From: Gammaproteobacteria bacterium
GTDB taxonomy: Bacteria > Pseudomonadota > Gammaproteobacteria > Ga0077554 > Ga007554
Length of the DNA: 64,000 bases
Direction of reading: 5' to 3'
Assembly: GCA_033717875.1 (NCBI GenBank)
Contig: JADDKJ010000002.1
Span: 2,820-66,819 of the forward strand
Below are positions 6,871-57,696 of the stretch, piece after piece (position 1 is the first letter of the stretch; every line of letters begins with the position of its first letter). The translations under genes and the position numbers were made by a program. The notes under the pieces are model-generated. The model was given only the letters and a program-made list of their open reading frames with translations. It was not told the DNA's origin and ran no database searches.

Positions 6871-6947
6871 TGGTAGCGGGGGCAGGATTTGAACCTGCGA
6901 CCTTCGGGTTATGAGCCCGACGAGCTGCCAGACTGCTCCACCCCGCA
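6871..6947 (-). tRNA. metY: Initiator tRNA-fMet (anticodon CAT)
   Basis: Minus-strand 77-nt sequence (T)GCGGGGTGGAGCAGTCTGGCAGCTCGTCGGGCTCATAACCCGAAGGTCGCAGGTTCAAATCCTGCCCCCGCTACCA. Anticodon loop CTCATAA with three consecutive G-C pairs in the anticodon stem (GGG/CCC), unpaired 1-72, encoded CCA. Near-identical to E. coli tRNA-fMet, in the conserved metY-rimP-nusA-infB position. Confidence 0.92.
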
Positions 6948-9497: not shown

Positions 9498-10895
9498 ATG
9501 TCCAACAATACCACCCACCGCACCGAAAAAGACAGCCTGGGCGAATTCCAGGTGCCGGCGGACGCCTGGTACGGCATCCAGACCGCGCGCGCCGTCGCCA
9601 ATTTCCCTATCAGCGGGCGCGGGCCGGACCGCGATTTCGTCGTCGCCCATGTGCGCATCAAACGCGCCGCCGCCATCGCCAACCAGCAGGCCGGCTGGCT
9701 GGAGGATTCGCTTGCCAATGCCATCGTCGCGGCCTGCGACAAGATTATCGCCGGGGAATATCTCGACCAGTTCGTCGTCGATCGTTTCCAGGCCGGCGCG
9801 GGCACCAGCCACAACATGAACAGCAACGAGGTGATCGCCAACCTCGCCAACGTCGCCCTCGGCGGCCGTTGTGGCGTGTACAAGCCGGTGAATCCCAACG
9901 ACCATGTCAACATGGGGCAGAGCACCAACGACACCATTCCCACCGCCATCCGCCTCACCGCGCTCGCCAAGTTGCCGCGCCTGGTCGACGCCGTGGAAAC
10001 GATGGCTGGCGAGTATGCGCGCATTGCCGCCGACGAGGCCGATACCGTCAAGAGCGGCCGCACACACCTGCAAGACGCCGTGCCCACCACCATCGGCCAC
10101 GAGTTCAACGCCTACGCTTGGACTCTACGCCGCTGCCGCCAGGGCCTGGAGCAGGTCCGCGCCCCGCTATGCGAGATCGGCCTGGGAGGCAGCGCCGCCG
10201 GCACCGGGCTGAACACCGCGCCGGACTATGCCGCCAATGCCGCCACGGAACTGGCCCGGCTGAGCGGCGAACCGATTCGCCCGGCCAGCAACCTGGTGGC
10301 GCAGATGCAGTCGATGCACGATATCCAGCGCGTGTCCTCGGCGATCCGCGATCTCACCCTGGAACTGATCCGCATCGCCAACGACATGCGCCTGCTGTGC
10401 TCCGGCCCGCGCACCGGCCTGGGCGAGATCGTGCTGCCGCCGGTGCAACCCGGCTCCAGCATCATGCCCGGCAAGGTCAATCCGGTGATGTTCGAGATGC
10501 TCAATCAAGTGTGCTACCAGGTATTGGGGCAAGACACCGCCATCACCGCGATGACCCAGGCCGGACAGTTGGAGCTGAACGTGATGATGCCGGGGCTGGG
10601 ATCGGCGCTTTTCGACGCCATGGATTGGCTGACCAACGCCATCAACGCCGCCACCGAACGCAATCTCAAGGGCCTGAAGGTGGATCGCGAACGCTGCAAG
10701 ACCTTCCTGCATAGCAGCGTGGGACTGGCCACCCTGCTCAACACCCGCATCGGCTACGCCGCCGCCGCCGAGATCGCCAAAACCTCGGAAAAAACCGGCC
10801 GCCCCGTGCGCGATATCGTCGCCGAACAAAAACTGATGACGGCGCAGGAGTTCGATGCGCTGGTGCTCAAGGCGGCGCGGGAGGGGAATATTTGA
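9498..10895 (+). CDS. aspA: Aspartate ammonia-lyase (class II fumarase/aspartase family)
   Basis: ORF 9471..10895. Start MSNNTT at 9498 with AAGGAG 5 nt upstream. GSSIMPGKVNPV signature, AACDKIIAGEYLDQFVVDRFQAGAGTSHNMN closely parallels E. coli AspA (AACDEVL...QFPVDVYQGGAGTSVNMN). Confidence 0.85.
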   Translation: MSNNTTHRTEKDSLGEFQVPADAWYGIQTARAVANFPISGRGPDRDFVVAHVRIKRAAAIANQQAGWLEDSLANAIVAACDKIIAGEYLDQFVVDRFQAGAGTSHNMNSNEVIANLANVALGGRCGVYKPVNPNDHVNMGQSTNDTIPTAIRLTALAKLPRLVDAVETMAGEYARIAADEADTVKSGRTHLQDAVPTTIGHEFNAYAWTLRRCRQGLEQVRAPLCEIGLGGSAAGTGLNTAPDYAANAATELARLSGEPIRPASNLVAQMQSMHDIQRVSSAIRDLTLELIRIANDMRLLCSGPRTGLGEIVLPPVQPGSSIMPGKVNPVMFEMLNQVCYQVLGQDTAITAMTQAGQLELNVMMPGLGSALFDAMDWLTNAINAATERNLKGLKVDRERCKTFLHSSVGLATLLNTRIGYAAAAEIAKTSEKTGRPVRDIVAEQKLMTAQEFDALVLKAAREGNI

Positions 10896-10904
10896 GGCAC
10901 CCTT

Positions 10905-10991
10905 TGATTTTTGCCTTTCTCCATTTCTCAATCACTTGCCGTGATTGAACAATGCCGGCACATCGGTAGGCCGAGGAATCCCTGAATTATT
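10905..10991. mobile_element. Repeat family A MITE, 5'-truncated copy spanning aspA-cupin convergent junction
   Basis: TGATTTTTGCCTTTCTCCATTTCTCAATCACTTGCCGTGATTGAACAATGCCGGCACATC...GGAATCCCTGAATTATTCAGAGGTTCC matches the internal and right-end portions of the 20726 copy. 10932-10991 are read as the last codons and stop of the cupin ORF. Confidence 0.75.
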
Positions 10992-11424
10992 CAGAGGTTC
11001 CTCGCCTTCTTTCACAGACAGCTTTTGACCAACAACACCCCCATAAAATACGATAATTTTTAATGGGCTTTGGCCAACATTGCGGCCATTGTGCAGAGCA
11101 TTCGTCACCTCCGCCAGAGCTTCACCGGCCGTAAATCGCTTTGCTTGACCTGTTTTGAGCTGAACCTCAAGCTCACCCTCAAGCACCATGCCAAATGAAG
11201 GCACCGGGTGTGAATGCCAGCCCGTTTCACCACCTGGGGCAATCTCTACGACCACGCCGGTAATTTCCGGTTTTCCTTCTGGATAAACGATCGGCTGACC
11301 ATCCCAACTCTTATCCGTTTTGAGAACCGTGGAGACTTTTACAGCGCTGGATAGCTCAATGGCATGGACCGAAAAAGACGACACCAAGCAGGAAACAACC
11401 GAAAACAAAATGCTTTTATATTTC
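10932..11424 (-). CDS. Secreted cupin-domain protein (C-terminus and stop codon derived from MITE repeat)
   Basis: ORF 10932..11492(-). Probable GTG start at about 11424 (GGGAGG RBS, 6-nt spacer) giving signal peptide KYKSILFSVVSCLVSSFSVHA. Cupin motif GETGWHSHPVPSFGMVLEGELEV. Last ~20 codons (NNSGIPRPTDVPALFNHGK*) are encoded by the repeat-A element at 10905-10991. Confidence 0.65.
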
Positions 11425-11547: not shown

Positions 11548-12612
11548 TTACTTGACCTGCGGGTCCAGCTCGCCCTTGGTGTAACGCTTGATCATCTGCT
11601 CCAGGGACACGGGCTTGATCTTGGAAGCGTTGCCGGCGGTGCCGAAGGCTTCGTAGCGGGCCTTGCAGATGTCCTTCATAGCCTTGGTGGAGGCTTTCAG
11701 GAATTTGCGCGGGTCGAATTCCTTCTTGTTTTCGGCCAGGAACTTGCGGACGGCGCCGGTGGAGGCCATGCGCAGGTCGGTGTCGATGTTCACCTTGCGC
11801 ACGCCGTGCTTGATGCCGTTGACGATCTCTTCGACCGGCACGCCATAGGTCTGGCCCATGTCACCGCCGTAGTTGTTGATGATTTCCAGCCATTCCTGCG
11901 GCACCGAGCTGGAGCCGTGCATCACCAGATGGGTGTTGGGGATGCGGGCGTGAATTTCCTTGATGCGGCCGATCGCCAGGATGTCGCCGGTGGGCGGACG
12001 GGTGAACTTGTACGCGCCGTGGCTGGTGCCGATGGCGATGGCCAGGGCGTCGACCTTGGTCGCCTTGACGAACTGGGCGGCTTCTTCGGGGTCGGTCAGC
12101 AACTGGGAATGATCCAGCGTGCCTTCGGCGCCCACGCCGTCTTCCTCGCCGGCCATACCGGTTTCCAGCGAGCCCAGGCAGCCCAGCTCGCCTTCCACGG
12201 ACACGCCGCAGGCGTGCGCCATGTCGACCACGCGGCGGGTCACATCGACGTTGTACTCATAAGTGGCCGGGGTTTTGGCGTCTTCCAGCAGCGAGCCGTC
12301 CATCATCACCGAGGTGAAGCCGCTCTGAATAGAGCGCATGCACACGCCGGGGGACGCGCCATGATCCTGGTGCACGACGATGGGAATGTGCGGATACATT
12401 TCCACGGCGGCATACATCAGGTGACGCAGGAAGGGTTCGCCGGCATAGGAACGGGCGCCCGCCGAAGCCTGCACGATCACCGGGCTGTCGGTTTCGTCCG
12501 CCGCCTGCATGATGGAGTGCATCTGCTCCAGGTTGTTGACGTTGAAAGCCGGCACGCCATAACCGCGCTCGGCGGCATGGTCCAGAAGCTGGCGCAGGGA
12601 TATCAGAGCCAT
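11548..12612 (-). CDS. fba: Fructose-1,6-bisphosphate aldolase, class II (Calvin-cycle/CbbA subtype)
   Basis: 354 aa. [35 protein letters not shown] zinc ligands, KVNIDTDLR. Length and sequence typical of the CbbA-type class II FBA of autotrophic beta/gamma-proteobacteria. Confidence 0.9.
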
Positions 12613-12752
12613 AGGATTCTCCTTTGAAGGTTATTGAAACAAAAAATCATTTGCGCGCGCCTGATTCAGGGAAGCTCTGACACATCAAAAGTTCGTCAGA
12701 AAGAGGGGCGCTCTTGTTATAGGGCCAATGATTCAACAGTTGAACCCATCCG

Positions 12753-15526: not shown

Positions 15527-15553
15527 GGAAGCTCTGAATAATTCAGAGGTTCC
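15527..15553. repeat. Solo family A terminal hairpin (27-nt perfect palindrome GGAAGCTCTGAATAATTCAGAGGTTCC) in pgk-gap spacer
   Basis: Identical to MITE termini. A degenerate version (GGGAAGCTCTGACACATCAAAAGTTC) occurs at 12669-12694 in the pyk-fba spacer. Confidence 0.7.
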
Positions 15554-16666: not shown

Positions 16667-16743
16667 TCACGCGGCCAACCCAGGCCGATAATTCTTGATT
16701 TCAGAACGCAGGGCACGCCCTGCACACCCTGCGTTCCTGATGG

Positions 16744-18741
16744 TCAGAGAACGCTCTGGACGGCCTTGACGACATTGTCCACGGTGAAGCCGAACTCCTT
16801 GAACAAATCGCCCGCCGGGGCCGATTCGCCGAAGGTGTCGATACCGACCACCGCGCCTTCCAGGCCGACATATTTGCGCCAGCCGTCGGTCACACCGGCC
16901 TCGACGGCGACACGCACCACGCCCTTGGGCAGCACGCTGTCCTTGTAGGCCTGATCCTGGCGGTCGAACACGTTGGTGGACGGCATAGAAACGACGCGCA
17001 CCGGCACACCCGCCGAAGCCAGCGCCTTCTGCGCATCCATGGCGAGCTGGACTTCCGAGCCGGTGGCGATGATCACGGCCTTGGGCTTGCCGCCCGCCGC
17101 TTCGGACAGAACATAACCGCCCTTGGCGATATTGGCAATGGTAGCCGCGTCGCGCTTCTGGAAGGCCAGATTCTGGCGGCTGAAGATCAGACTGCTCGGC
17201 CCCTTGGCGCGCTCGATGGCGGCGATCCAGGACACGGCGGATTCGACGGTATCGCACGGGCGCCACACATCCATATTCGGAATCAGGCGCAGCGTGGCGG
17301 TTTGTTCGACGGGCTGGTGGGTCGGGCCATCTTCGCCCAGGCCGATGGAGTCGTGGGTGAAGACGAAAATCGAGCGGATCTTCATCAGCGCCGCCATGCG
17401 CACGGCGTTGCGGGCATACTCGGAGAACATGAGGAAGGTCGCGCCGTAAGGAATCAGGCCGCCGTGCAGGGTAAGGCCGTTCATGATGGCGGCCATGCCG
17501 AACTCGCGCACGCCGTAATAGATGTAGTTGCCGCCACTCTCTTTGGACACGCCGCGCGAACCGGACCACAAGGTCAGGTTGGAGCTGGCCAGGTCCGCCG
17601 AACCGCCGATCAACTCGGGCAGGGCCGGAGCCAGACCTTCGATGCTGTTCTGCGAAGCCTTGCGGGTAGCAATGGTCTCGCCCTTGTCGTTCACTTTCGC
17701 CAGGAAGGCGGCGGCATGCGCCTGCCAATTGGCGGGCAGCTCACCGCTCATGCGGCGCTTGAACTCAGCGGCCTCGGCGGGATAAGCCTTGGCGTATTCG
17801 GCGAATTTGTTCTCCCACAACTTCTCCACGCCCTCGCCCTTCACCTTGGCGTCCCAGCCGTCATACACCTCTTGCGGGATCTCGAAGGGAGGATAATTCC
17901 AGCCGATATTGGCACGGGTGGCGGCCACTTCGGCATCGCCCAGCGCGGCACCGTGGCAGTCGTGGCTGCCGGCCTTGTTGGGCGAACCCTTGCCGATGAT
18001 GGTCTTGCAGCAGATCAGGGTCGGCATGCCGGTGTTGGCCTTGGCCTGCTGGATCGCGGCATCGACCGCCGCGAAATCGTGGCCGTCGACATTCGGGATC
18101 ACATGCCAGCCATAAGCCTCGAAACGCTTCGGGGTGTTGTCGGTGAACCAGCCCTCGACGTGACCGTCGATGGAGATGCCATTGTCGTCATAGAAGGCGA
18201 TCAGCTTGCCCAGCCCCAGCGTGCCGGCCAGCGAACAAGCCTCATGGGAAATGCCTTCCATCAGGCAGCCGTCGCCAAGGAAGACATAGGTATGGTGATT
18301 GACGATTTCGTGGCCGGGCTTGTTGAATTCGGCGGCCAGCACCTTTTCGGCGATCGCCATGCCCACCGCATTGGTGATGCCCTGCCCCAGCGGGCCGGTG
18401 GTGGTTTCGATACCGGGCGCATAGCCGTATTCAGGATGGCCGGGCGTTTTGGAGTGCAACTGACGGAAGCGCTTGATCTCTTCCATCGGCAGATCATAGC
18501 CGGTCAGGTGCAACAGCGCGTATTGCAGCATGGAACCGTGGCCGTTGGAGAGGACGAAACGGTCGCGATCGGCCCACTTGGGGTTGGCCGGATTGTGCCG
18601 CAGATGATTATTCCACAAGACTTCCGCAATTTCCGCCATGCCCATGGGCGCACCGGGATGCCCTGAGTTGGCCTTTTGGACGGCATCCATCGCAAGCGCG
18701 CGGATGGCATTGGCTAAATCTTTACGGGAAGCAGCAGACAT
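16744..18741 (-). CDS. tkt: Transketolase
   Basis: 665 aa. N-terminal [37 protein letters not shown]-binding [13 protein letters not shown] motif. Heads the tkt-gap-pgk-pyk-fba cluster. Confidence 0.92.
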
Positions 18742-20725: not shown

Positions 20726-20875
20726 GGAAGCTCTGAATAATTCCATCCTGGAATTCTCAGAGCACGAAAAGCAAAAATGTGATTTTCGCTTTTCTTCATT
20801 TTTCAATCACTGGCCGTGATTGAAAAATGCCGGCACATCCTTGTGCCATGAAACCTCTGACACATCAGAGGTTCC
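20726..20875. mobile_element. Repeat family A: about 150-bp Correia-like MITE with hairpin termini GGAAGCTCTGAATAATTCC...GAAACCTCTGACACATCAGAGGTTCC (full copy, metK-ahcY spacer)
   Basis: Same element occurs reverse-complemented at 34898-35048 (about 93% identical), flanked by TTTA on both sides in both copies (possible target duplication). Internal palindrome TTCAATCAC-TGGCC-GTGATTGAA. Confidence 0.8.
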
Positions 20876-20911: not shown

Positions 20912-20990
20912 TTCTTCGAGGAGCGTTGCAACAGGGCTTTACCCTGCCAGGCTCGAAGAAAACATTCCACTTGCAACAACGGCGCTCGTT
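20912..20990 (+). promoter_or_regulatory. SAH riboswitch (S-adenosylhomocysteine-responsive) in the ahcY 5' leader
   Basis: TTCTTCGAGGAGCGTTGCAACAGGGCTTTACCCTGCCAGGCTCGAAGAA...CAACGGCGCTCG. P1 CTTCGAG/CTCGAAG, conserved GAGGAGCGYUGCAAC and AGGCUCG segments, and GAGCG/CGCUC pseudoknot partner AACGGCGCUC just upstream of the ahcY RBS. Matches the SAH-riboswitch consensus as recalled from the literature; RF01057 is the Rfam model I believe corresponds to it, and a Rfam search is needed to confirm. Confidence 0.75.
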
Positions 20991-21010
20991 CATCCATGGA
21001 GAATATGCCA

Positions 21011-34897: not shown

Positions 34898-35048
34898 GGA
34901 ACCTCTGAATAATTCAGAGGTTCCGCAGCACAGGGATGTGCCGGCATTGTTCAATCACTTGCCGTGATTGAACAATGAAGAAAAGCAAAAATCGCATTTT
35001 TGCTTTTCGTGCTCTGAGAATTCCAGGATGGAATTATTCAGAGCTTCC
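34898..35048. mobile_element. Repeat family A MITE, full copy in inverse orientation (GNAT-htpX spacer)
   Basis: Reverse complement aligns end-to-end with 20726-20875. Left terminus here is the perfect 27-nt palindrome GGAACCTCTGAATAATTCAGAGGTTCC. Flanked by TTTA/TTTA. Confidence 0.8.
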
Positions 35049-43286: not shown

Positions 43287-46200
43287 TCAGGCCGCCCGTT
43301 CGGCGGCATGGCGGCCCGTCAGCCGCCGGACGTGGTCGAGCAATTCCTGCTCCTGATAGGGCTTGCCCAGATACTCGTTCACCCCGATGCGCAAGGCGTG
43401 TTCGCGGTGCTTGTCGCCGGTGCGCGAAGTGATCATGATGATGGGGATATGCTTCAAGCGTTCATCGTTGCGGATGGCGGAAGCCAGTTCGTAGCCGTCC
43501 ATGCGTGGCATTTCGATATCCAGCAGCATGATGTCGGGCAGATGGTGCTGCAATACCTCCAGCGCGTCCACGCCATCTTTTGCTACGAGCACTTGCATCT
43601 GGTTGCGTTCCAGCAGGCGTGAAGTGATCTTTCGCACCGTGATGGAGTCGTCCACCACCATGACAGTCACCGCTCCGGCGCCATGCACCTGGCTGCCCGA
43701 TACATTTTGCCGCGCCATCGGCGCTGGCGCATGACCGGCAACCGATCCCATGCGCAACAAAGCGGGGATATCCAGAATCAACGCCACGCCGCCATCGCCC
43801 ATAATGGTCGCGCCCATCACGCCCCGCACTTCGCTCAACTGTGGCCCCAGCGATTTGACGACGATTTCGCGGCTTTCCACGAATGCATCGATGCGCAACG
43901 CGGCGCGCTGACCGCCGCCATGAACCATCAGCAGCAGATGACGGTCATCTTGCCCCGGCGGCAAGAGAGACGCATCTTCACCCAGCAAATCACGCAACGC
44001 TCGCAATGGATAGGATACACCGCCGTATTCGATGGCCGGAGCCTCGCCGCGCCACGCCCGTTCCAGCGTGGCGCGGCTGACCCGCATGACACCGGCGATG
44101 CTGGAATGGGGAATGGCATACATTTGCTCAACGTCGCGGACGATCAGGGCCTTGGTGATGGACAGCGCGACAGGCAAGCGAATGGTGAAAACGCTGCCCT
44201 GCCCCGTCACGGATTCGATATACAAGCTGCCGCCGAGCTGTTTGATCTGGCTATTCACCACGTCCATGCCGACGCCACGGCCCGAGACCTGTGTCACTTG
44301 GCTGGCGGTGCTGAAGCCCGAGTCGAGCACGAATTGCATCAGACTTTGATCGTCGATCGCGGCGTTTTCCTGCAACAAGCCGCGCTCGATGGCTTTACGC
44401 CGAATCGCTGGCAAATTCAGACCGCGCCCGTCGTCGCTCAGGCGCAACACCATTTCCACGCCCTCCTTGCTCAACCTCAGCGTAAGCGAGCCCATATCGG
44501 GTTTACCCAAAGCATGACGATCGGCGGGACTTTCAATGCCATGATCGACGGCATTGCGCACCATGTGCTCCAGCGGCGCGATGATACGGTCGAGCACGGT
44601 GCGATCCATTTCAAGATCCGCGCCGGCAACATGCAGCCCGGCCTGTTTTCCCACGTCCCGCGCGGTCTGACGGACCACGCGCCGCAGCCGCGATACCACA
44701 CCGGCAAAGGGCAACATGCGGGTGCGCATCATGCCTTCCTGCAATTCGGTATTGAGCCGCGCCTGTTGCAGCAATATCACTTCGGAATCGCTGATCTGTT
44801 TGTCCAGGTGATCCTCGATGCTGACAAGGTCAGCGACCGACTCCATCATGCCGCGCGCCAATTGCTGCACCAGTGAATAACGGTCGAATTCCAGCGGATC
44901 GAATTCCTGGCCTTGCAAGCTCAGCTCTTGATGGCGGAACAGGACTTGCGCCTCGGTTTCGATGTCCAGCTTGCGCAATTGCTCGCGCATGCGCGCGACC
45001 GTCTGCTTCATTTCCGCGACGCCGCTACGGAAGGCATGAACCTGCTGTTCCAGGCGGGCGCGTGAAATGCTGAGCTCACCGCCCTGATTCACGAGATGAT
45101 CCAGCAGATCGGCACGCACGCGGATCTGTTCAGCGGCGGGTGTACGATCCAGCCACACCGGCTCGGCATCGCCTCCCGGGGACTCGTCGCCCTCCGCAAC
45201 GGAAGGCGATGATGCTTGCAAAACCACGGCGTCCGCCTCATCGATCTCGCTGGCGACAAGTGCGCCTTCCTCGCGATCATGCTGCGTTCCGGCATCTCTC
45301 TCCACCTCGATCACCGGAAGCGCGTCCGCGAGTTCTTCCGTGACGGAGGCCATGACCATTGACTGTTCCGAATCCATCGGAATATCTTGGCCGTCCTCCG
45401 TACCCGCCAAGGCTTCCAGGCGCAGAACAAAATCCTGGGCATCCCTGACGGGCTGGCGCATCATCGCCTGCTCCAGCATTTCCTGAAGACGGTCATAAGA
45501 TTGCTCGAATATCCCGAAAATATCATCCGTGACCGTGACCTGTCCGTTCGCAATGGCACGCAACAAGGATTCGAAACTGTGGCTGAGGTCGCCAAGCGCG
45601 GCGATGCCCGCGGTGCGTGCACTGCCCTTGAAGGTATGCAGTTCGCGTTCCAGTCTTGCCACTGCCTCCCGGTCGCCCGGCTCCCGCATCCAGCGCCGCA
45701 ACAGGGTTTCGATGTTACCCAGAATTTCCGCCGCCTCTTCCAGAAAGACCGCCAGTACCTCGTCCATGTCATTGCGTGGCGCCGCCCTGGCGGTCCTGTC
45801 CAGTTCTTCGGAGGTGGTCACCGACTGTTCCTCGTCAGCGATAAAATTCGCTGCCCGGCGCGTCAATCCAGCGATTCTTTCCAGCATCGCCGCCTTTTCC
45901 GGCGATTCGCCCAGAGGCTGCGCCAGTCCCAGTGTTTCATGAAACACGTCGACGAATTCGCTCAAGGCGCGCATCGCATCTTCCGTGACTTCGCCCTGGC
46001 CGCGATTGAGCAGAGTGACATAGTCCTCGAAGCAACCGCTCAAGTCGGCAATCTCCACAAACCCGGCCATGTGCGCACTGCCCTGCAAGGTGTGCAGGTT
46101 GCGCAACAGCGATTCCGTCACACGGCCTCGCCCCGCCGGGCTGCAAGCGTTGATGAAATTCCGCACTTCCGCCAAACGTCCTTGCGATTCGTGCTTGAAG

Positions 46201-48599
46201 ATCTCCAGCAGCACAGGATCGCTCTGCGGCGCGTGTTCGCTTGTGTCATCTGACGTTGCGATCCGCGGTTGTTCCATTTCATCGGCGGCGGAACGGGGCG
46301 GTACGCTCAATGCCTGCGCCTCGTCTATCAGCGCCTGGACAGTGCTGTCGATATCCGTCTCGCCTTTCGCGCATTGGAATTGCCGCAATAATCCAGGCAT
46401 TGCCGCATGCGCACGCGCCACCACATCGAATATCGCGGGGCCAGCCGGGATCTCACCGGCGATCACGGTATTCAGAAGATGTTCTATCGCCCACGCCACT
46501 TCGCCGATCACCTTCGCCCCGACCAGCCGTCCACTACCTTTCAGGGTATGAAACGAGCGGCGGATGGTCTTGAGCGCATCCTCGCTACCTTGCCGCCAGC
46601 GGGTATGATTTTCGGCGATCGATGTCAGCTCTTCGCCCGCTTCTTCAGCAAAGACCTCCATGACCTCATCCGCCATGTCTTCGTCCTGCCCGGGCACCGG
46701 AGCCGGCGCAGTATCGGCGGGCATGGACACAGTGACGCCTTCCACCACCGGCGCATCCGCGATGCTCTCCAGGGCGTGAGTCTCGATGATCACCATGGGT
46801 TGATCGACAACTTCCGGCGCTTGCACCGCGCATTCCGCGTTATCGGCAATGACGGCGGACTCTCCCTCGGAGCCGGAAACATCCGCGCCCCCATCATCCA
46901 TCGGTATATCGCCAACCACATCGATCGGATAACCCAGCGTCGCGACCTGCCCTTCCGCCATTTCGAGCAGCGAATCAAGATTCATCTGACTCTCGGCCAG
47001 TGTTTCGAGATAAAACTCGACACTGGTCAATACATCGGCCAGGGTATTGAGCACATCCTGGGAACAAGCCGTCTGGTTTGCGGATAGATCACGACGGAGA
47101 TAGTGGAAAATCGATTTCAACAGAGTGGCCGGACGCGGTAGCGATAGCACGATCAGAACACCTATGATACGCCGCAGCGTGGCAGGACATGAGGCGATCA
47201 GACCGTATTGCGCGGGCGCGCTGGCGAACGCCATGATGTCTTCCTTGACCCGAGTCATATCGGCCATGGTCTCGCGGATGACGGTGCAACGTATCTCGTG
47301 ATATTCAACTGCGCTTATCAGCGCGGCATTTTCCGAAAGCGCCTTATCCGGCGCGTCCGATGCCGAATCTTCCGGCATTGGAACATCGCGCAGCAACGAT
47401 TGCACATAGACCAGGGCATTGGCCACTTCCACCAGGCGTGGATCGTTGAGTATCGTTCCTTCTTCGATAACCGTGTCGATCACCCCGGTTTGCTGGCGCA
47501 CCCGCTGGCGCAATTCCCAGCGGCCCAGCATATCGAACGTGTTCGATACTCGCTTCAACACATCCGCGATGGAGCGCAAATCCCGGGGCGTGTGCCGCCC
47601 GCCGGCGCGTGCAAACTCATCCAGCTTATCCTTCGCCCATGCCAGCTCTTCCTTGACGGCATCGGCGGCCATCTCCAGCAAGATGGGATTCGCGGCAGCC
47701 GGGCTGTCGCCTTGCCCCGGCGAAGATTGCCCGGCAACAGCCATCGCTCCTTCCATGGCCGGCGCGCTTTTTGTATCGGCATAGGCGATGTAATAAAGAA
47801 GATTCTTGATGAGCTCCGCCGGGGGATGGTCACGCAGATCCTGGGCGCCGGAAGCGGCAACCCGGCCAATCTGCCGCTCCACCTGTCCCAGCAGCAGCTT
47901 GATGGCGGGATTGACTTCGAGTGCATCCTTGAGGAGTCTTTCGATCAACCCCTCGGCCACCATCCACAGCCCCTCTTCCGGGCAAGACTGCTGAAGTTGC
48001 GTGACCACTTGCATCAGCCGCCGCAAGGCCGCCTTGTTGCCGGAATCCCGGTACCATACCAGCAAGCCGGCCTGATATACCGGCCGCAGGCGCTGCGCCA
48101 GGACCGTCATATCGTCCGCGACCGCATCTTCCGTTTCGGGATGGCTCGGGTTGATAACAGAGAGGGCATCCGGCCCGAACACCATGCTCTCGGAGAGCGG
48201 CGGCATACCCGCCGCCACGCGCAGATCATTGATCAATGGGAGGAGAGTTTTCGGAGTGTCATGGCGCCCTTCTTGCAGCCGCGCCACAGACTCGCTCAAG
48301 CTTGTGATCGCCCGAGCCAGGGTCTCATAAGCCCATGTCTTGCACTTGCTGCTGTCCCTGCCCATCGCTGAAACAGCATGTCCCGTCGCTTCCGCAAGCG
48401 CCGCAAGACCCGTGAGATCCAGCATCTTCAGCGCACCGTGAACCTCATGCAACAGCGCAACACAAGATTGCACTTGCGCGTCATCGCCAGAACACAGGCA
48501 AAATGTTTCCAGCACATGACGCGCCTGTTGCAGATTCACATCGATCTCGCCCTTGACCCATTTCAGGGCGTTATAGTCCATCTGATCGGTCGCTATCAT
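43287..48599 (-). CDS. chpA: ChpA/PilL-like hybrid CheA histidine kinase with multiple Hpt domains and C-terminal receiver
   Basis: 1770 aa. At least four Hpt-like HxxKG motifs (HEVHGALKML, FHTLKGSGRL, LHTLQGSAHM, LHTFKGSART), a CheA dimerisation/HATPase_c core (GRGVGMDVV...GQGSVFTIRLP), a CheW-like domain, and a C-terminal REC domain (VMVVDDSITVRK...LLDIEMPRMDG...KPY). Confidence 0.9.
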   Translation of the reverse strand: MIATDQMDYNALKWVKGEIDVNLQQARHVLETFCLCSGDDAQVQSCVALLHEVHGALKMLDLTGLAALAEATGHAVSAMGRDSSKCKTWAYETLARAITSLSESVARLQEGRHDTPKTLLPLINDLRVAAGMPPLSESMVFGPDALSVINPSHPETEDAVADDMTVLAQRLRPVYQAGLLVWYRDSGNKAALRRLMQVVTQLQQSCPEEGLWMVAEGLIERLLKDALEVNPAIKLLLGQVERQIGRVAASGAQDLRDHPPAELIKNLLYYIAYADTKSAPAMEGAMAVAGQSSPGQGDSPAAANPILLEMAADAVKEELAWAKDKLDEFARAGGRHTPRDLRSIADVLKRVSNTFDMLGRWELRQRVRQQTGVIDTVIEEGTILNDPRLVEVANALVYVQSLLRDVPMPEDSASDAPDKALSENAALISAVEYHEIRCTVIRETMADMTRVKEDIMAFASAPAQYGLIASCPATLRRIIGVLIVLSLPRPATLLKSIFHYLRRDLSANQTACSQDVLNTLADVLTSVEFYLETLAESQMNLDSLLEMAEGQVATLGYPIDVVGDIPMDDGGADVSGSEGESAVIADNAECAVQAPEVVDQPMVIIETHALESIADAPVVEGVTVSMPADTAPAPVPGQDEDMADEVMEVFAEEAGEELTSIAENHTRWRQGSEDALKTIRRSFHTLKGSGRLVGAKVIGEVAWAIEHLLNTVIAGEIPAGPAIFDVVARAHAAMPGLLRQFQCAKGETDIDSTVQALIDEAQALSVPPRSAADEMEQPRIATSDDTSEHAPQSDPVLLEIFKHESQGRLAEVRNFINACSPAGRGRVTESLLRNLHTLQGSAHMAGFVEIADLSGCFEDYVTLLNRGQGEVTEDAMRALSEFVDVFHETLGLAQPLGESPEKAAMLERIAGLTRRAANFIADEEQSVTTSEELDRTARAAPRNDMDEVLAVFLEEAAEILGNIETLLRRWMREPGDREAVARLERELHTFKGSARTAGIAALGDLSHSFESLLRAIANGQVTVTDDIFGIFEQSYDRLQEMLEQAMMRQPVRDAQDFVLRLEALAGTEDGQDIPMDSEQSMVMASVTEELADALPVIEVERDAGTQHDREEGALVASEIDEADAVVLQASSPSVAEGDESPGGDAEPVWLDRTPAAEQIRVRADLLDHLVNQGGELSISRARLEQQVHAFRSGVAEMKQTVARMREQLRKLDIETEAQVLFRHQELSLQGQEFDPLEFDRYSLVQQLARGMMESVADLVSIEDHLDKQISDSEVILLQQARLNTELQEGMMRTRMLPFAGVVSRLRRVVRQTARDVGKQAGLHVAGADLEMDRTVLDRIIAPLEHMVRNAVDHGIESPADRHALGKPDMGSLTLRLSKEGVEMVLRLSDDGRGLNLPAIRRKAIERGLLQENAAIDDQSLMQFVLDSGFSTASQVTQVSGRGVGMDVVNSQIKQLGGSLYIESVTGQGSVFTIRLPVALSITKALIVRDVEQMYAIPHSSIAGVMRVSRATLERAWRGEAPAIEYGGVSYPLRALRDLLGEDASLLPPGQDDRHLLLMVHGGGQRAALRIDAFVESREIVVKSLGPQLSEVRGVMGATIMGDGGVALILDIPALLRMGSVAGHAPAPMARQNVSGSQVHGAGAVTVMVVDDSITVRKITSRLLERNQMQVLVAKDGVDALEVLQHHLPDIMLLDIEMPRMDGYELASAIRNDERLKHIPIIMITSRTGDKHREHALRIGVNEYLGKPYQEQELLDHVRRLTGRHAAERAA

Positions 48600-48630
48600 G
48601 CCGTTGTCACCTGTTCATGATCCAATGCGC

Positions 48631-48784
48631 CTCTGAGAATCGGTTCAAGATCTCGATCAAGGGATGCAGCGCAAGGCGAAAGTGGCCGAAAAAGCGGAGC
48701 ATACACGGAGTATGTGAGCATTTTGAGGACACTTTCAACGCCGCGATGCGCCCTTCAGCGAGATCTTGAACAGGTTCTGAGAGG
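48631..48784. mobile_element. Repeat family D: about 155-bp long imperfect-palindrome element (MITE-like) in pilJ-chpA spacer
   Basis: CTCTGAGAATCGGTTCAAGATCTCGATCAAGG...CGAAAAAGCGGAGCATACACGGAGT...CATTTTGAGGACACTTTCAACGCCGCGATGCG...CAGCGAGATCTTGAACAGGTTCTGAGAGG. About 55-bp imperfect terminal inverted repeats. A second copy at 55201-55356 shares the central core. Confidence 0.65.
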
Positions 48785-48803
48785 CTAATGAGAACCTTGC
48801 CAT

Positions 48804-50576
48804 CTACGCTGGCAATTTAAAGCCCGCCACCGAGCTCTTGAGCTGACCGGCCATGATGGTCAATTCGCCGATCGAGTTTGCCGCCTGCCGGGTTCCAAGC
48901 GAGGTTTGCGTGGTGACATTCTGTATCGTCTTCATGGTATCAGCCACGCTGTTGGCGATCACCGTCTGCTGCTGGGCAGCGCCGGAGATGTCGTCGATCA
49001 GGTGAGCAAGATCCGTGGAAACGTTTTCGATTTCACCCAGCGCTTGACCCGCCGCTTGAGCCAGGCGGGTACCACTCACCACACCGGCGGTACTCTTCTC
49101 CATAGAGATAACCGCTTCGTTGGTGTCGGTCTGAATGGTTTTCACCAGCGTGGCGATCTGCTTGGTGGAGTTCGCCACACGTTCCGAGAGACGCTGCACC
49201 TCGTCGGCAACCACCGCGAAGCCGCGCCCCGCTTCACCGGCCATCGCCGCCTGAATCGAGGCATTCAAGGCCAGGATGTTGGTCTGGTCGGCGATGTCGT
49301 TGATCAGGCCGACGATTTCACCGATCTCCTGTGAGCTTTCGCCCAGCCGCTTGATACGTTTCGACGTTTCCTGAATCTGCTCGCGAATCGCCTCCATGCC
49401 GGCGATGGTATCCTGCACCGTTTGCGAACCCTTCTTGGCGATATCCACCGACTTTTCCGCCACCGCCGTCGATTGAGCGGCGTTGGCCGACACACGCTCG
49501 CTGGACTTGGTCATTTCATAAATCGCCACGCCCGCGGTTTCAATCTCCTGCGCCTGCAGGTCACTGGCCTCGGTCAACCGGACGGCAGTGGATTGCGTTT
49601 CCGCGGCAGCGGTGGAAACTTTCAGCGCCGTGTCATTGATTGATCCCACCACACCGCGCAACGTTTCGATGGCATAGCCCAGCGAATCGGCGATGGCGCC
49701 GGTGAAATCCTCGGTCACGAGAGGTTTCTTGGTCAAATCACCATCCGCCAGATCGCCCACCTCGTCGAGCAAGCGTAGAATCGCATCCTGGTTGCGGCGG
49801 TTCTGTTGTTCGGCCTCGGCCAGCATGGTGTTCACCTTGTTGACGGCCTGATTGACGCCACGCCGGATAGGAAACGCCAAGGCGAAGGTGATCACCAGAG
49901 CCGCGATCACCACGATGACAAAAATCATACTGCTGCGAGCAAAGGCTTCTTGCGCCTCTTGCTTGTCCTTCTCAAGATTATTGGTAATATGAGCATCCAT
50001 GCTTTTGATCAATGTCTCCATCTGCTCCGTAGAGGCACGGTCCTGCCCCTTCACCAGATCATCCACAAGACGGGCGCTTTCGCCGGCGCGGGCCTGATCA
50101 TACCCCTTCAATGCCTCCTTATAGCGAGCCCCCAGCTCCGCGTGTTTCTTCAACAACGCATCCACCTGCTCGACATCAAGCCCTGGCTGCTGCGTCATCA
50201 CCTGCCGTAATTCCTTGAGATTCGATTGCACCTTCGCTTCTTCCTTCTCGAAAGCACCAAGGTGATTGGCATAACGTTCTGGATCACCCCCCCAGAGCAG
50301 GATATCCTTCCACTCCTGAATTTGCTTCTTGAACGTTATTTCAGCCCCCTGCGCAAGCTTGACCATCTTGAGATCCTGCTCCGCGTCATTAACGGTCCGG
50401 GCAACAAGCGCTTGCTCCTTGTAGGTACTGTAAAACCCGAATGCTCCGATACTCACAATCGCCAGCGACATCAGCCCCACCAGTAACCACAGCAGTGTGT
50501 TAACGCCCATGTTCCTGAACGCATCGAGGCCACGGAACCCGCCCGCGCCGATAGTTTTAAGACCACTCATTTTCAT
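48804..50576 (-). CDS. pilJ: Methyl-accepting chemotaxis protein (PilJ-like)
   Basis: 590 aa. Two TM segments with periplasmic domain, HAMP, and highly conserved MCP signalling hairpin (DQTNILALNASIQAAMAGEAGRGFAVVADEVQRLSERV). Confidence 0.9.
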   Translation of the reverse strand: MKMSGLKTIGAGGFRGLDAFRNMGVNTLLWLLVGLMSLAIVSIGAFGFYSTYKEQALVARTVNDAEQDLKMVKLAQGAEITFKKQIQEWKDILLWGGDPERYANHLGAFEKEEAKVQSNLKELRQVMTQQPGLDVEQVDALLKKHAELGARYKEALKGYDQARAGESARLVDDLVKGQDRASTEQMETLIKSMDAHITNNLEKDKQEAQEAFARSSMIFVIVVIAALVITFALAFPIRRGVNQAVNKVNTMLAEAEQQNRRNQDAILRLLDEVGDLADGDLTKKPLVTEDFTGAIADSLGYAIETLRGVVGSINDTALKVSTAAAETQSTAVRLTEASDLQAQEIETAGVAIYEMTKSSERVSANAAQSTAVAEKSVDIAKKGSQTVQDTIAGMEAIREQIQETSKRIKRLGESSQEIGEIVGLINDIADQTNILALNASIQAAMAGEAGRGFAVVADEVQRLSERVANSTKQIATLVKTIQTDTNEAVISMEKSTAGVVSGTRLAQAAGQALGEIENVSTDLAHLIDDISGAAQQQTVIANSVADTMKTIQNVTTQTSLGTRQAANSIGELTIMAGQLKSSVAGFKLPA

Positions 50577-52844: not shown

Positions 52845-53855
52845 TCATCCCGTCCCCTTTGTTTTCGCCGCCATCTCCAGCGCGGCCTGGATAGCGGCCT
52901 CAAGACTGCCGCTATCAACCTTGCCAGTCCCGGCAAGATCCAGCGCCGTGCCATGATCCACCGAAGTGCGGATGATGGGCAGGCCAAGGGTGATATTGAT
53001 CGCGCGGCCGAACCCGGCGTGCTTGAGCACCGGCAGGCCCTGGTCGTGATACATCGCCAGCACCGCATCGGCGGCGTGCAGGTATTTGGGGATGAACAGG
53101 GTATCGGCGGGCAACGGGCCGACGAGGCGCATGTCCTCGGTGCGCAACCGCTCCAGCACCGGCGCGATGATCTCTTCGTCTTCCCCGCCCAGATGACCGC
53201 CCTCGCCGGCGTGAGGGTTGAGGCCGCACACCAGAATGCGGGGCACGGCGATGCCGAAGTGTCTTTGCAGATCACCATGCAGCATGCGCAGCACGCTTTC
53301 CAGCAGCGGCGCAGTGATGGCGTCGGCCACTTGCCGCAATGGCAGGTGGGTGGTGGCCAGCGCCACACGCAGCCCCGGTATCGCCAGCATCATCACCACC
53401 TGCGGCGATTGCGTCAGCTCGGCGAGAAACTCGGTATGGCCGGTAAACGGCATGCCCGCCTGGTTGATCACGCTCTTTTGCACCGGCCCGGTTACCAGCG
53501 CATCGCACTGCCCGGCGAGGCAGGCGTGGGTAGCCGCGCGCAGCGTTTCGAGCACATACGCCGCATTGCCGGTGTCAAGCCGGCCGCAAACGGCGGGGTT
53601 GGCGAGCGGCACCCGCAAGATCTTGAGTGTGCCCGGCTGATGGGCTTCGGGAGGATGCGCGGGATCGAACTCCTCCAATCGCAACGGCAAACCCAGCAAG
53701 CGGGCGCGCGATAGCAACAGCTCACCATCGGCCACCGCGACCAGCTCGGCGGCATACGCCTGCTGGGCAATCCGCACGCACAGGTCGGGGCCGATGCCGG
53801 CCGGTTCTCCGGGAGTGATTGCGAGACGAGGAAGCATGGCTGGCTCGGAGACCAC
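52845..53855 (-). CDS. pdxA: 4-hydroxythreonine-4-phosphate dehydrogenase
   Basis: 336 aa. [34 protein letters not shown] motifs. Overlaps the surA stop. Confidence 0.9.
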
Positions 53856-55171
53856 TAGGAAGCGGCATCCTCCAGCCGGTATTCCACATAAGCTTCGTCA
53901 CGCAAACGGCGCAGCCAGGTCTGGTATTCCTCTTCGACCTTGCGGTTGCGAATCGCCTCGAAGGCCTGGCTGCGGTTGAATTGCTCGGTGTTGTCCTGCT
54001 CGCGCCGCTGCTGTACCTGGACGATATGCCAGCCGAATTCACTCCTGAACGGCTTGCTGATCTCGCCCGGCTGTAGCTGGCCCATAGCCTGCTCGAAGGC
54101 GGAGACCATTTCGCCCGGACTGACCCAGCCCAGCTCGCCGCCGCTGGCGGCGCTGCCCTTGTCGTCGGAATTGGCACGCGCCAACTCGGCGAAATCCGCG
54201 CCCTTTTCGATGCGTTGCCGCAATTGTTCGAGGCGGATGCTGGCATCATCGTCGCTGATCAGCTCGTTGGTCTTGATCAGAATGTGACGCGCCTGGGTCT
54301 GCGTGACCATGTGCTGCTTGCCGCCACGGTAATCGGCCACTTTTATGATGTGGAAACCGGACGGCGAACGGATGAGATCGCTCAATTCGCCTTTTTTCAT
54401 TTTCACCACCAATGGCGCGAACAGCGAGGGGAGTTGCGCAGGGCCACGCCAGCCCAAATCCCCTCCTTCGAGCGCCTGCGCGCCATCAGAAACGGCGACC
54501 GCCGTCTCGCGGAAATCAGCTCCACCGCGCAGACTGTCCAACACCCCCTGCGCTTTTTGTTTAGCCTCCTGGATCTGCTCCGGCGAAGCGGCCTCGGGCA
54601 CGCCGATCAGAATGTGCATTACGCGGTATTCATCATCCGCTCGGCCCTGACCGGCCTTATCGGCAAGCAGGCGATTGACCTCCTGCTCCGTCACGGTGAT
54701 GCGGCTATCGACTTGGCGCTGCCGCAAGCGGGTGATGGTGATTTCCTCGCGGATGTTCTCGCGGAAGCTGGCGAAATTGAATCCGTCCTTCTCCAGCGCA
54801 TCGCGAAACTCCGCCAGCGACAGCTTGTTTTGTTCGGCGATGCGCCCTATCGCGCGATTGAGCGCGTCGTCATCGACACGGATGCCGGTGCTGGCGGCGA
54901 GTTGCAATTGCAGACGATTGATCACCAGACGTTCGAGCACCTGCTTGCGCAGCGCGGCCTCGGGGGGCGTGCCACCGCCGCGCTGGCGCATCTGCTGCTT
55001 GATCACGCCGATCTCTTCATCCAGCTCGCCGCGCGTGATGATGTCGTCATTGACAATGGCAACGATACGATCGATGGCAACGGCATCCGCCGCCACCACG
55101 CCGGGCACAAGCACGGCGGCCGGCAGCATCAGCATCAAACCTGCGACTATTCTTTGTATAAACCGGATCAT
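53855..55171 (-). CDS. surA: Periplasmic chaperone / peptidyl-prolyl isomerase SurA
   Basis: 438 aa. Signal peptide, N-terminal chaperone domain ([18 protein letters not shown]), two parvulin PPIase domains (HILI motifs). Confidence 0.9.
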
Positions 55172-55200
55172 GTCATCACAACCTTCATATAAAAATGGGC

Positions 55201-55356
55201 ACCTCTAAAAATTCGATCAAGGCGCGAGGGCAAGGCCCCCTGTTTATAAAGGGGGGGCGAAAAAGCGGAGTGTACACGCAGTCTGCCGCTTCCCGGCCCC
55301 GCATTTTGAGCCACTTTTCAACGCCGCCATCGCGGCTTTAGCGGATTTTTAGAGGT
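55201..55356. mobile_element. Repeat family D copy in surA-lptD spacer
   Basis: ACCTCTAAAAATTCGATCAAGGCGCGAGGGCAAGGCC...CGAAAAAGCGGAGTGTACACGCAGT...CATTTTGAGCCACTTTTCAACGCCGCCATCGCGGC...GGATTTTTAGAGGTAC. Core about 80% identical to the 48631 copy. Outermost termini differ. Confidence 0.65.
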
Positions 55357-55362
55357 ACCCTC

Positions 55363-57696
55363 TTATCGCCCACCTTGATAACCCAAAATACCACGCTCCA
55401 ACACCGTCCTGATCGACTGTCCGACACTCATCAGCCCCTTGAGTTCCAATTGCATCATCAACGCCCGGGTGGTCGTCGCGGTGCCCGTGGTATAACTCCG
55501 GGTGAGGATGGTGAATGCCCAGCAGCAACTGTTGTACTCCAGCCCCGCCAGCGATTCCAGGACGCGGTTATCGGGCATCGAATAGTACCAGCGCCCGATG
55601 GCGTTCCAGTTGCGGTGCAGCGGCCAGAAAAACGAGATATCCATCTGTTCAAGCTGATCGCGCCGATAGCGATAGGCCAGATTCAGGATATGATTCCGCC
55701 GCGGCTGATACTGAAGGCGGACGGATCCGCGCGCGGTCTCCTCGACATGCGGATTCCAGTGCAGATCGGCGCTCGCGGTCCAGCCCGGCGTCAGGTTGAC
55801 CGCCGCCTCGCCGATGATATTGGAGGTCGGCCGGGTTTCCACCGCGCCGCCCGGAAACGCCACGCGGCGGTCCTGCATATAGTATATCTGACCAATGCTT
55901 GCGCGGATAAGCTCCTCGCCACTGTCTCGGTTGAGCAGACGGCTCGCCAGCGCGGCGCTGAACTGATTGGCGTCACCCACGCGATCCACGCCGCTGTAGC
56001 GATTGTCGCGGAACAACTGCGTGGCGTTGAAATCCATCGCGGCACTGTCGAACACCGGCAACGCGGACTGGTCACGATACGGCGCATACAGATAAAACAG
56101 GCGCGGCTCCAGCGTCTGCAACAGCGGTGAACGGCCGATATCGAGATCACGCTCGAAAAACAGGCCGCTGTCCAGCGTGGCGACCGGCAGTGTGCGGGTC
56201 GGGTTTTCCGGCGCTCCCGGCGCGGTATTGTCCAGCGCATAGCGCGTGTGCCGCAGCACCAGCCGGGGAGTGACATAGCCCGCCGCCCGCTCCCATGGCA
56301 GGCTCACCTCGGGCTGCATATCAAGACGCGAGCCGGTCAGCTTGTCTTCCTGGTCGAACCGCACGAGCTCGCTCTGAAGACGGTAGTTCAGCGCCCCCGA
56401 ACCCGCCGGCCATGCGGCGGTCAGCAGCAATTGCGGCAGGCGGCGATAGGGGCGCAAAGCCGATGGCAGCGTCCTGTCGACCGGCTGCAAGCCTTGCACG
56501 CGCCCCAGAAAAGATAGGTTTTCCCGCTGATACGTCACATCGAAGCGGCGCTCCACAAAAGGCGTGCTGGCAACGCCCAGACTCGTGCCGAAATTCCTGA
56601 AATAATCCTTGTCGGAAACGTAATTGAGATTCAGATCGGTACCCCAGCCAGAAAGCAGACTACCCGCATGCTTATAAGCAAACATGGCGCGATCGCTGCC
56701 GTACACAGCGTCGTCTGGCAAATACTCGGCATCCACCTGCCCACGGCTGGCGCGGTTGAGATAACGGAACTCGCCATCCATCATCAAACCGCGCCGGCTC
56801 ATGTAACGGGCCGCGATCGTCGCATCGCGGTTGGGGGCGAGATTGAGATAGTACGGTATCCTGATATCCATGCCCGACACGGAGGTGTTACCGATGCGCG
56901 GGATCAAAAATCCGCTTTTGCGCTGGTTGTCGATCGGAAAGGAGATATAAGGCAAATATAAAAACGGCACCCCCATGAACCGCACCGTGGCGTTATACAT
57001 CTCGCCGGTGCCTTTGGCCTGGTCCAGCTTGATCGTGGACGAGCGCAACAACCATGCCTCGCCGCCCGGATTGCAGGTGGTGTAAGTGGATTGCTTGAGT
57101 CGCAACACATCACGGCTTTCCCTGATCGCGGTAACCGCCTCGCCACGGGCATGCTGCTCTTCGAGACGGTATTTCGCATTGTCGAATTGGCCCGTCTCCG
57201 CCCCCAGCTCGACATGCCCGGCATCGCCATCGACCGACAGATTTTCGTCGCGGTAGCGCACGTTGCCCTGCGCCTGCGCGGTATCTTTCCCCTGATCATA
57301 GATCACCGTATCGGCTTGCAACTGCTCCGGGCCACGGCGCACCAGCACATCGCCGCTGAACACCGCCAGGCTATCCTTGACGGCAAAGCCGTGATCGGCG
57401 CTTAGGTGCGTCGGCAACTCCTTCGGCGAGACCGCGCTCTTTGTGCGCGGTTTGGGCGCGGCGTGCATGTCGCACAGCCCCCACGCCCCTTCCGTCACCG
57501 GCTCCGCGGGCGCGGCGGCAAAAGCGATCGGTGCAAAGGCGCTCGACGCCAGCAGCACGAATGTAGCCAGCCGGAGGATGTTCACGAAGCGGGATTCATC
57601 TTGGTTGTTGGCCGGAAAGTTGCTTATACAAGGAGCTATACTTAGAATTTTACGCCATGACACAGCAGAGATAGACCAATCTCCACGATCCGGCAA
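55363..57696 (-). CDS. lptD: LPS-assembly outer-membrane protein LptD
   Basis: 777-aa ORF. N-terminal beta-jellyroll plus large beta-barrel, collinear with E. coli LptD (for example GFLIPRIGNTSVSGMDIRIPYYLNLAPNRDATI). Biological start probably an internal GTG near 57585 giving signal peptide (M)NILRLATFVLLASSAFAPIAFA. Confidence 0.9.
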   Translation of the reverse strand: MPDRGDWSISAVSWRKILSIAPCISNFPANNQDESRFVNILRLATFVLLASSAFAPIAFAAAPAEPVTEGAWGLCDMHAAPKPRTKSAVSPKELPTHLSADHGFAVKDSLAVFSGDVLVRRGPEQLQADTVIYDQGKDTAQAQGNVRYRDENLSVDGDAGHVELGAETGQFDNAKYRLEEQHARGEAVTAIRESRDVLRLKQSTYTTCNPGGEAWLLRSSTIKLDQAKGTGEMYNATVRFMGVPFLYLPYISFPIDNQRKSGFLIPRIGNTSVSGMDIRIPYYLNLAPNRDATIAARYMSRRGLMMDGEFRYLNRASRGQVDAEYLPDDAVYGSDRAMFAYKHAGSLLSGWGTDLNLNYVSDKDYFRNFGTSLGVASTPFVERRFDVTYQRENLSFLGRVQGLQPVDRTLPSALRPYRRLPQLLLTAAWPAGSGALNYRLQSELVRFDQEDKLTGSRLDMQPEVSLPWERAAGYVTPRLVLRHTRYALDNTAPGAPENPTRTLPVATLDSGLFFERDLDIGRSPLLQTLEPRLFYLYAPYRDQSALPVFDSAAMDFNATQLFRDNRYSGVDRVGDANQFSAALASRLLNRDSGEELIRASIGQIYYMQDRRVAFPGGAVETRPTSNIIGEAAVNLTPGWTASADLHWNPHVEETARGSVRLQYQPRRNHILNLAYRYRRDQLEQMDISFFWPLHRNWNAIGRWYYSMPDNRVLESLAGLEYNSCCWAFTILTRSYTTGTATTTRALMMQLELKGLMSVGQSIRTVLERGILGYQGGR

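Follow-up and report, generated by a model that had tools for sequence, protein, structure and literature searches.

The window, that is the whole 64-kb stretch of DNA analysed here, contains two related repeats, which we call copy A and copy B. Copy A lies between the genes for a PilJ-like methyl-accepting chemotaxis protein and a ChpA-like hybrid histidine kinase, copy B between lptD and surA. The spacers holding them separate same-strand genes that are approximately 190-205 nt apart. The orientation of the two copies is given as the strand of their core, and the host genes are encoded on the minus strand. The features are the following.

43287 to 48599, minus strand: ChpA-like hybrid histidine kinase gene (Pfam Hpt/HATPase_c/CheW/Response_reg), downstream of copy A
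48629 to 48633, no strand: GCCTC half-palindrome left of copy A, read directly from the sequence
48634 to 48636, no strand: target-site duplication TGA, left copy, flanking copy A
48637 to 48777, plus strand (core strand): copy A, canonical 141-nt element with arms of the A-type class, GAAyCnGTTCA.GATCTCGATCAAGGG... (profile E 1.2e-36)
48687 to 48727, plus strand: conserved apical core of copy A, CGAAAAAGCGGAG-CATAC-ACGGA-GTATG-TGAGCATTTTGAG
48778 to 48780, no strand: target-site duplication TGA, right copy, flanking copy A
48781 to 48785, no strand: GAGGC half-palindrome right of copy A, read directly from the sequence
48804 to 50576, minus strand: PilJ-like methyl-accepting chemotaxis protein gene (Pfam MCPsignal), upstream of copy A
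53855 to 55171, minus strand: surA (Pfam SurA), downstream of copy B
55197 to 55360, plus strand: copy B, 164-nt element with arms of the B-type class, GGGCACCTCTAAAAATTCGATCAAGG... (profile E 1.8e-24)
55236 to 55257, plus strand: extra mini-hairpin segment of copy B, CCCCCTGTTTATAAAGGGGGGG, standing in for the usual short box
55258 to 55310, plus strand: core of copy B, with a variant apex at 55283-55301, CTGCCGCTTCCCGGCCCCG replacing ACATGAG
55363 to 57696, minus strand: lptD (Pfam LptD), upstream of copy B

A sequence-only reading of the window had proposed two MITE-like repeats inserted into two essential operons. Both repeats are present, and their limits are refined to 48637-48777 and 55197-55360. 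The identities of the neighbouring genes are confirmed by Pfam assignments; "essential operons" is an overstatement, pilJ-chpA being a twitching and chemosensory cluster. The start codon of the chpA-like gene is located 34 nt from the TGA duplication of copy A. At the other locus, a 25-nt gap containing the ribosome-binding site of surA lies outside copy B, and only 2 nt separate the lptD stop codon from the element. Both downstream ribosome-binding sites were left intact by the insertions.

Local alignment of the two copies extends over about 98 columns around the core that the earlier reading had described. The core patterns CGAAAAAGCGGAGNNTACACGNAGT and GCATTTTGAG..CACTTT.CAACGCCGC occur exactly twice each in the window (0 expected from shuffled sequences), and a profile built from 50 related copies detects only copies A and B within the 64 kb. 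Terminal inverted repeats of 55 bp had been proposed. The symmetry instead runs through the entire element, and each copy is one long imperfect palindrome over its full length, its terminal arms being complementary over 35 nt at 86% (copy A) and 83% (copy B). Read on the gene strand, copy A is predicted to fold as RNA with a minimum free energy of -73.7 kcal/mol (z -8.3) and copy B with -83.4 kcal/mol (z -6.3). At 141 and 164 nt, the copies contain neither a conserved reading frame nor a transposase gene. A small ORF in the core was ruled out, as the core ATG is followed by a stop codon in the CATAC stem variant on the core strand and in the TTTAC variant on the reverse strand. A K-turn in the core was likewise dismissed, since U and not A follows the bulge, and a search by eye for an IHF consensus site found none. 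Scans of both copies revealed no terminator-like hairpin with a T tract and no convincing promoter. Copy A contains one weak promoter-like match (9/12) on the minus strand, formed by the conserved TTGAAA and the apical CATACT; the sole promoter-like match near copy B falls outside the element.

The flanks of the elements carry the marks of insertion. Copy A is bordered by TGA on both sides, and its insertion split a small older palindrome, GCCTC-TGA-GAGGC, of which GCCTC occurs in the element-free pilJ-chpA spacer of a related contig (L126; loci and contigs are designated by L numbers) as well. Among A-type copies in general, 15 of 17 are bordered on both sides by the same trinucleotide TNA, in which N varies, compared to a mean of 5.9 and a maximum of 12 upon permutation. 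B-type copies show identical and diverse 4-nt flanks in 13 of 22 cases (permuted mean 1.0), and other arm classes are invariably bordered by TA. Copy B itself is flanked by AAAT and TCTT and has no intact target duplication.

Contigs of relatives were obtained via SurA homologues; the gene order lptD-surA-pdxA-...-cheW-MCP-chpA is conserved in them. The lptD-surA spacer is free of any element and only 24 nt long in L118 and L119 (SurA 90% identical), and 39 nt long in L123 (SurA 78% identical), while a 95%-identical relative (L120-L122) shares the insertion of copy B with an identical junction. Element-free pilJ-chpA spacers of 66-68 nt are found in L126 and L127. When copy A and one TGA are subtracted from the pilJ-chpA spacer of the window, 60 nt remain, a size similar to that of these empty spacers. 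Moreover, L123 carries an A-type copy of its own in the pilJ-chpA spacer (16709-16854), inserted at a TTA approximately 7 nt from the insertion point in the window and in the same orientation. The TTA is intact and empty in L126 (6649-6716), a close relative of L123 (SurA 92%, MCP 94%). As the site in L123 is distinct and empty in L126, two independent insertions have occurred in one short spacer, which may point to a hot spot for insertion or to selection. The chemosensory cluster of the more distant relative L127 also contains two long spacers of 303 and 490 nt (12432-12736 and 10510-11001), in which the family profile finds no copy. Insertion of elements into the two spacers of the window is hereby established.

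The two copies belong to a dispersed family. CGAAAAAGCGGAGNNTACACGNAGT, the 22-base core pattern common to copies A and B, was found at at least 112 loci in a scan of one genome per species, the counts of which are lower bounds. Among the matches listed, the hosts belong to Gamma- and Betaproteobacteria and to Desulfobacterota; they comprise Gammaproteobacteria including Marinospirillum and Pseudomonas isolates, Burkholderiales, Nitrosomonas, Gallionella, Desulfobacterales and a single-cell genome of Thermodesulfobacteriota. The core was found in Halomonas and in chromosomes and plasmids of Enterobacterales, too. Some genomes among the matches listed harbour 6 to 14 copies, several of them combine A-type with B-type arms, and some environmental genomes contain near-identical copies, which are numerous in JAKFXX01, SBBG01, LNEJ01 and JACKLU01. 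The core has no match in viral contigs and thus there is no sign of carriage by phages. A nearly identical copy is found next to the gene for an RND efflux permease on numerous conjugative plasmids of Klebsiella, Citrobacter and Enterobacter (H52-H77), and another beside malF on Pantoea megaplasmids. Plasmids may transfer these elements between hosts.

Fifty copies of 138-150 nt can be aligned end to end (canonical length about 141-149 nt) and reveal a layered architecture. At least ten classes of terminal arms are joined to one nearly invariant apical hairpin of 41 nt. The variable arms form the outermost layer of about 40 nt; they enclose conserved, non-complementary CAAGGC and AACGCCG segments, followed by a covarying box of 4-5 nt and by the almost invariant centre, CGAAAAAGCGGAG - 5-nt stem - ACGNA - 5-nt stem - TGAGCATTTTGAG. 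In the consensus fold 92% of the cells are paired, compared to 32-44% in controls with the partners shifted by 1-3 columns. Of the 46 pairs, 34 show compensatory changes; two of these belong to the apical stem (UA/CG at one, UA/GC/AU at the other), and one G-U pair as well as a GGA/GA internal loop are invariant. The subfamilies that had been suspected from the different ends of copies A and B exist: the two arms represent distinct classes, each with many members elsewhere, which occur together in the same genomes.

Recombination between elements, also suspected earlier, finds its evidence in copy B. As compared to its orthologue in the 95%-identical relative L120-L122 (positions 1-100), which has the canonical apex and box, copy B contains two internal replacement segments, 55236-55257 and 55283-55301. 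The apex variant CTGCCGCTTCCCGGCCCCG recurs in L001, L073, L108, L109 and L112, that is at five loci with three arm classes, and other recurrent inserts, e.g. ACCAGAAGTAGGCGCCTCCAGGCG in L011, L030 and L099, show the same behaviour. The occurrence of one apex variant across three arm classes fits conversion between dispersed copies. Three independent metagenome contigs of a close relative (L120, L121 and L122) break off where the orthologue of copy B has its apex. Repeats of this kind break short-read metagenome assemblies, which is relevant to genome annotation.

Each of the 5,426 complete E. coli genomes carries a related element of 152 bp, with 1-9 copies per genome (median 5) and six in a K-12 derivative. 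The core of this element is 87-89% identical to the family core over about 45 nt, and the family profile detects it with an E value of 2.7e-10. Homology to the window copies is confined to the core, and the arms differ. The E. coli copies are mutually diverged (about 80% identity) and are old. At the hemE-nfi site, 308 E. coli genomes have TTA[148 bp]TTA, and in K-12 TTA, the hemE stop codon in reverse complement, occurs only once; another copy is intercistronic, between glrK and qseG. To our knowledge, function, origin or mobility of the RSA repeat of E. coli have been described nowhere. The K-12 record lists RSA with 150/151 bp and six copies, together with IRU, BoxC and Ter (PMC5172473, table 1). 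By size and copy number, the 152-bp element is probably this RSA repeat, and we term the family RSA-like. The current record has no annotated RSA feature at the E. coli site examined, so that the identity of the two remains an inference. If correct, the orphan RSA repeat would gain a probable identity as a transposon relic with a TNA duplication, having active-looking relatives in environmental bacteria. The naturally filled and empty strains at hemE-nfi, together with the operon copy between glrK and qseG, permit direct tests in E. coli.

The window harbours a second MITE family at 20726-20874, 34898-35048, 10905-11002 and 15527-15553. Its ends, GGAAGCTCTGAATAATTC, agree with B-type ends at 14 of 18 bases and with the inverted repeat of IS5 at 12-13 of 18, its interior is unrelated, and both full copies are flanked by a 4-bp duplication, TTTA|TTTA. 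Agreement with the IS5 repeat is low for A-type and E. coli ends (4-7/18). The copy at 15527-15553 is a 27-nt palindrome consisting of nothing but the two ends; it may be a minimal derivative or a footprint, and homologues of this second family occur in L078 and L092. Directly downstream of one copy of this family lies a SAH riboswitch (20912-20994, plus strand, 68 bits). Elsewhere in the window a tRNA gene is located at 6874-6947 on the minus strand.

Similar ends can enclose different interiors, as seen again in L030, where a 90-nt pair of B-type arms surrounds yet another one, and one core is joined to arm classes with TA, TNA and 4-bp duplications. In the IS5-family and PIF-Harbinger (PHIS) transposons, the duplications are short and AT-rich (TWA, TNA, AT) and differ, in length as well, from one clade of the superfamily to another (PMC4482050). 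We infer that the variable arms would serve as handles for DDE transposases of the IS5 / PIF-Harbinger type acting in trans, and that the 41-nt apical hairpin would be a conserved passenger or cis module common to different handles. The search for a partner transposase in about 0.9 Mb of loci, by arm pairs at IS-like spacing, yielded only neighbouring MITEs. When 1,504 ORFs of these loci were compared all against all, only orthologues and no multi-copy protein emerged, and in the plasmid collection core matches were found and no arm matches.

Taken together, both loci are, with good confidence, copies of non-autonomous cut-and-paste MITEs of a widespread RSA-like superfamily, possibly with an effect on the processing of host mRNA. 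The MITE character is evident from the small size without transposase gene, the terminal inverted repeats, the target duplications and the dispersal together with empty sites; the dispersed MITE-like repeat that had been postulated from two copies is hereby borne out by at least 112 core loci, element-free orthologous spacers and duplicated targets. Several points speak against a simple MITE. Simple recognition by a transposase does not explain an invariant core with conserved unpaired bases, a partner transposase was found neither in about 0.9 Mb of loci nor in the plasmid collection, copy B has no intact duplication, and only two copies are visible within 64 kb of the source genome. MITEs normally conserve their ends and not their middle. 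The kind of element is ordinary, and what is unusual is an apical hairpin conserved across phyla combined with variable ends. A MITE superfamily whose hairpin tip is preserved by selection across phyla would point to an unrecognised cis requirement or to a passenger function.

Concerning the host genes, the close spacing of same-strand neighbours makes it probable that both copies are transcribed within host mRNAs. There, the elements would fold into imperfect duplexes of roughly 70 bp, which by analogy with Correia, ERIC and REP sequences could be targets of RNase III or RNase E or could block exonucleases. As a result of such processing, the upstream cistron would no longer be coupled in level to the downstream one. 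An effect of the copies on mRNA stability or on attenuation is therefore a plausible proposal by analogy, and RSA-like copies at stop codons inside operons may, like Correia, ERIC and REP sequences, shift the expression of one cistron relative to another.

Elements retained because they benefit the host, as domesticated intercistronic sequences tuning pilJ versus chpA and lptD versus surA, are in our view unlikely. In two lineages an A-type copy has entered the same pilJ-chpA spacer in the same orientation, at most about 10 nt apart, E. coli has its operon copy between glrK and qseG, and copies cluster at the 3' ends of genes: among the matches listed, 35 of 92 stop codons and 5 of 59 start codons of neighbouring genes are no more than 10 nt away from the hairpin boundary. 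These observations would agree with a benefit. The TNA target, however, covers TAA and TGA, so that the clustering at stop codons may reflect target choice, selection or both, and a TNA target together with purifying selection against insertions in promoters would give the same placement without any benefit. In addition, the pilJ-chpA spacer provides only two independent events, and L118, L126 and L127 function with empty spacers. A role of the apical hairpin itself, as a structured RNA or single-stranded DNA module merely spread by transposon ends, is somewhat less doubtful, though still improbable. If true, the copies would be small-RNA or protein-binding sites and not neutral insertions. 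The near invariance of the core across at least ten arm classes and three duplication lengths, the covariation at two positions of the apical stem and the invariant G-U pair and GGA/GA loop argue for it, and the model of the sX9 RNA can be aligned with E. coli copies and with canonical copies of the B-type. G-U outnumbers A-C (86 versus 41 cells) on the core strand; per pair, however, the asymmetry is 18 versus 9 and not significant (p = 0.12). The orientation of the core relative to flanking genes is unbiased in tandem contexts (25 same-sense, 18 antisense; convergent contexts, 18, exceed divergent ones, 7; all among the matches listed), a result that speaks against any strand-specific function within host transcripts. 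The sX9 scores remain under the gathering score of 44, with no match for the window copies, and neither copy has a convincing promoter. Still tentative, and carrying slightly more weight, is the broader proposal that the 41-nt hairpin, with its covarying stem, ACGNA loop, GGA/GA internal loop and fixed G-U pair, is an independent structure-specific signal that has become coupled to transposase handles of no fewer than three classes (TA, TNA and 4-bp duplications). If so, a conserved host or mobilisation factor would recognise one strand of it, in the form of RNA or single-stranded DNA, RSA-like vehicles would have spread one structured module across Proteobacteria and Desulfobacterota, and the usual logic of MITEs, conserved ends and a free interior, would be reversed.

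Two further explanations concern the origin of the repeats. Stem-loops specific for each operon, i.e. attenuators or terminators that evolved in place and are not mobile DNA, would account for the intercistronic position and the strong predicted folding. Such structures are contradicted by the same sequence in hundreds of unrelated contexts, by empty orthologous spacers and by target duplications, and neither copy has an internal terminator-like hairpin with a T tract; we give this explanation practically no credence. It is here that the sequence-only reading had located its own possible failure, namely in a lack of further copies and in conserved spacers, and the comparison returned dispersed copies and spacers that are empty in relatives. 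Palindromes of the REP/REPIN type, whose single-stranded hairpins are the substrate of a RAYT (HUH tyrosine) transposase, are very improbable as well. They would agree with a full-length hairpin containing conserved unpaired bases, with the intergenic position next to gene 3' ends and with the weak hint of strand asymmetry. HUH transposition, however, makes no duplications of the kind seen here, where variable flanks (TNA with any N, diverse 4-mers) are truly duplicated. REP/REPIN sequences have no target duplication and consist of units of 20-40 nt arranged as inverted doublets; the present elements are four times the length of a REP, and the 141 nt fold into one hairpin that is not built from two shorter units. 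Non-autonomous MITE copies remain the preferred reading, and we compare them in the following with the systems already described.

Searching the whole window with Rfam at the gathering threshold gave nothing relevant to copies A and B, and neither did a search of the two copies at permissive E values. The core sequences hit published full texts only as chance primer matches, and a paper on a group IIC intron was checked and dismissed. A 75-nt RNA of Xanthomonas, sX9, has been detected on Northern blots (PMC3300014) and is among the sRNA families most often matched in bacterial genomes (PMC9029176), a frequency to be expected of a repeat. The sX9 model (RF02228) scores 31.7 bits with an E. coli copy and 21.5 bits with a canonical B-type copy, both aligned from the apical stem through the terminus. 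This suggests that sX9 is one half of a homologous element, possibly processed. It differs from the window copies in that scores in their relatives are below the gathering score, and copies A and B have no match at E values up to 10.

Among mobile elements, IS5 / PIF-Harbinger transposons and Tourist-like MITEs resemble the RSA-like elements in their short AT-rich duplications and in ends starting with GA or GG, and differ from them in that no transposase gene is linked to any of the RSA-like loci examined. The RSA-type element of E. coli shares with the window copies the full-length palindrome, a GAGCCTG-type end and the TNA duplication, whereas its arms show no relationship in sequence to the arms of either window copy. 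ERIC/IRU elements of Enterobacterales are intergenic imperfect palindromes of 127 bp, too, and nevertheless constitute a separate family: IRU is listed apart from RSA in E. coli K-12, with 127 bp and 19 copies (PMC5172473). ERIC sequences are transcribed with their neighbours and in Yersinia affect mRNA decay in an RNase E-dependent manner, and Correia elements are co-transcribed and their RNA hairpin is cut by RNase III (PMC10969869). The Correia elements of Neisseria (CREE/NEMIS) are, like the RSA-like elements, palindromic MITEs of about 100-200 bp in intergenic or intercistronic positions. By description, they have conserved ends, a TA duplication, an IHF site and promoters, and are restricted to Neisseria. 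We know of no cognate transposase for Correia elements. Copy A, by comparison, duplicates TGA and B-type copies 4 bp, and the RSA-like elements as a whole are distinguished from Correia by a conserved apex, variable ends, duplications of TNA, 4 bp or TA, and a range that extends across phyla.
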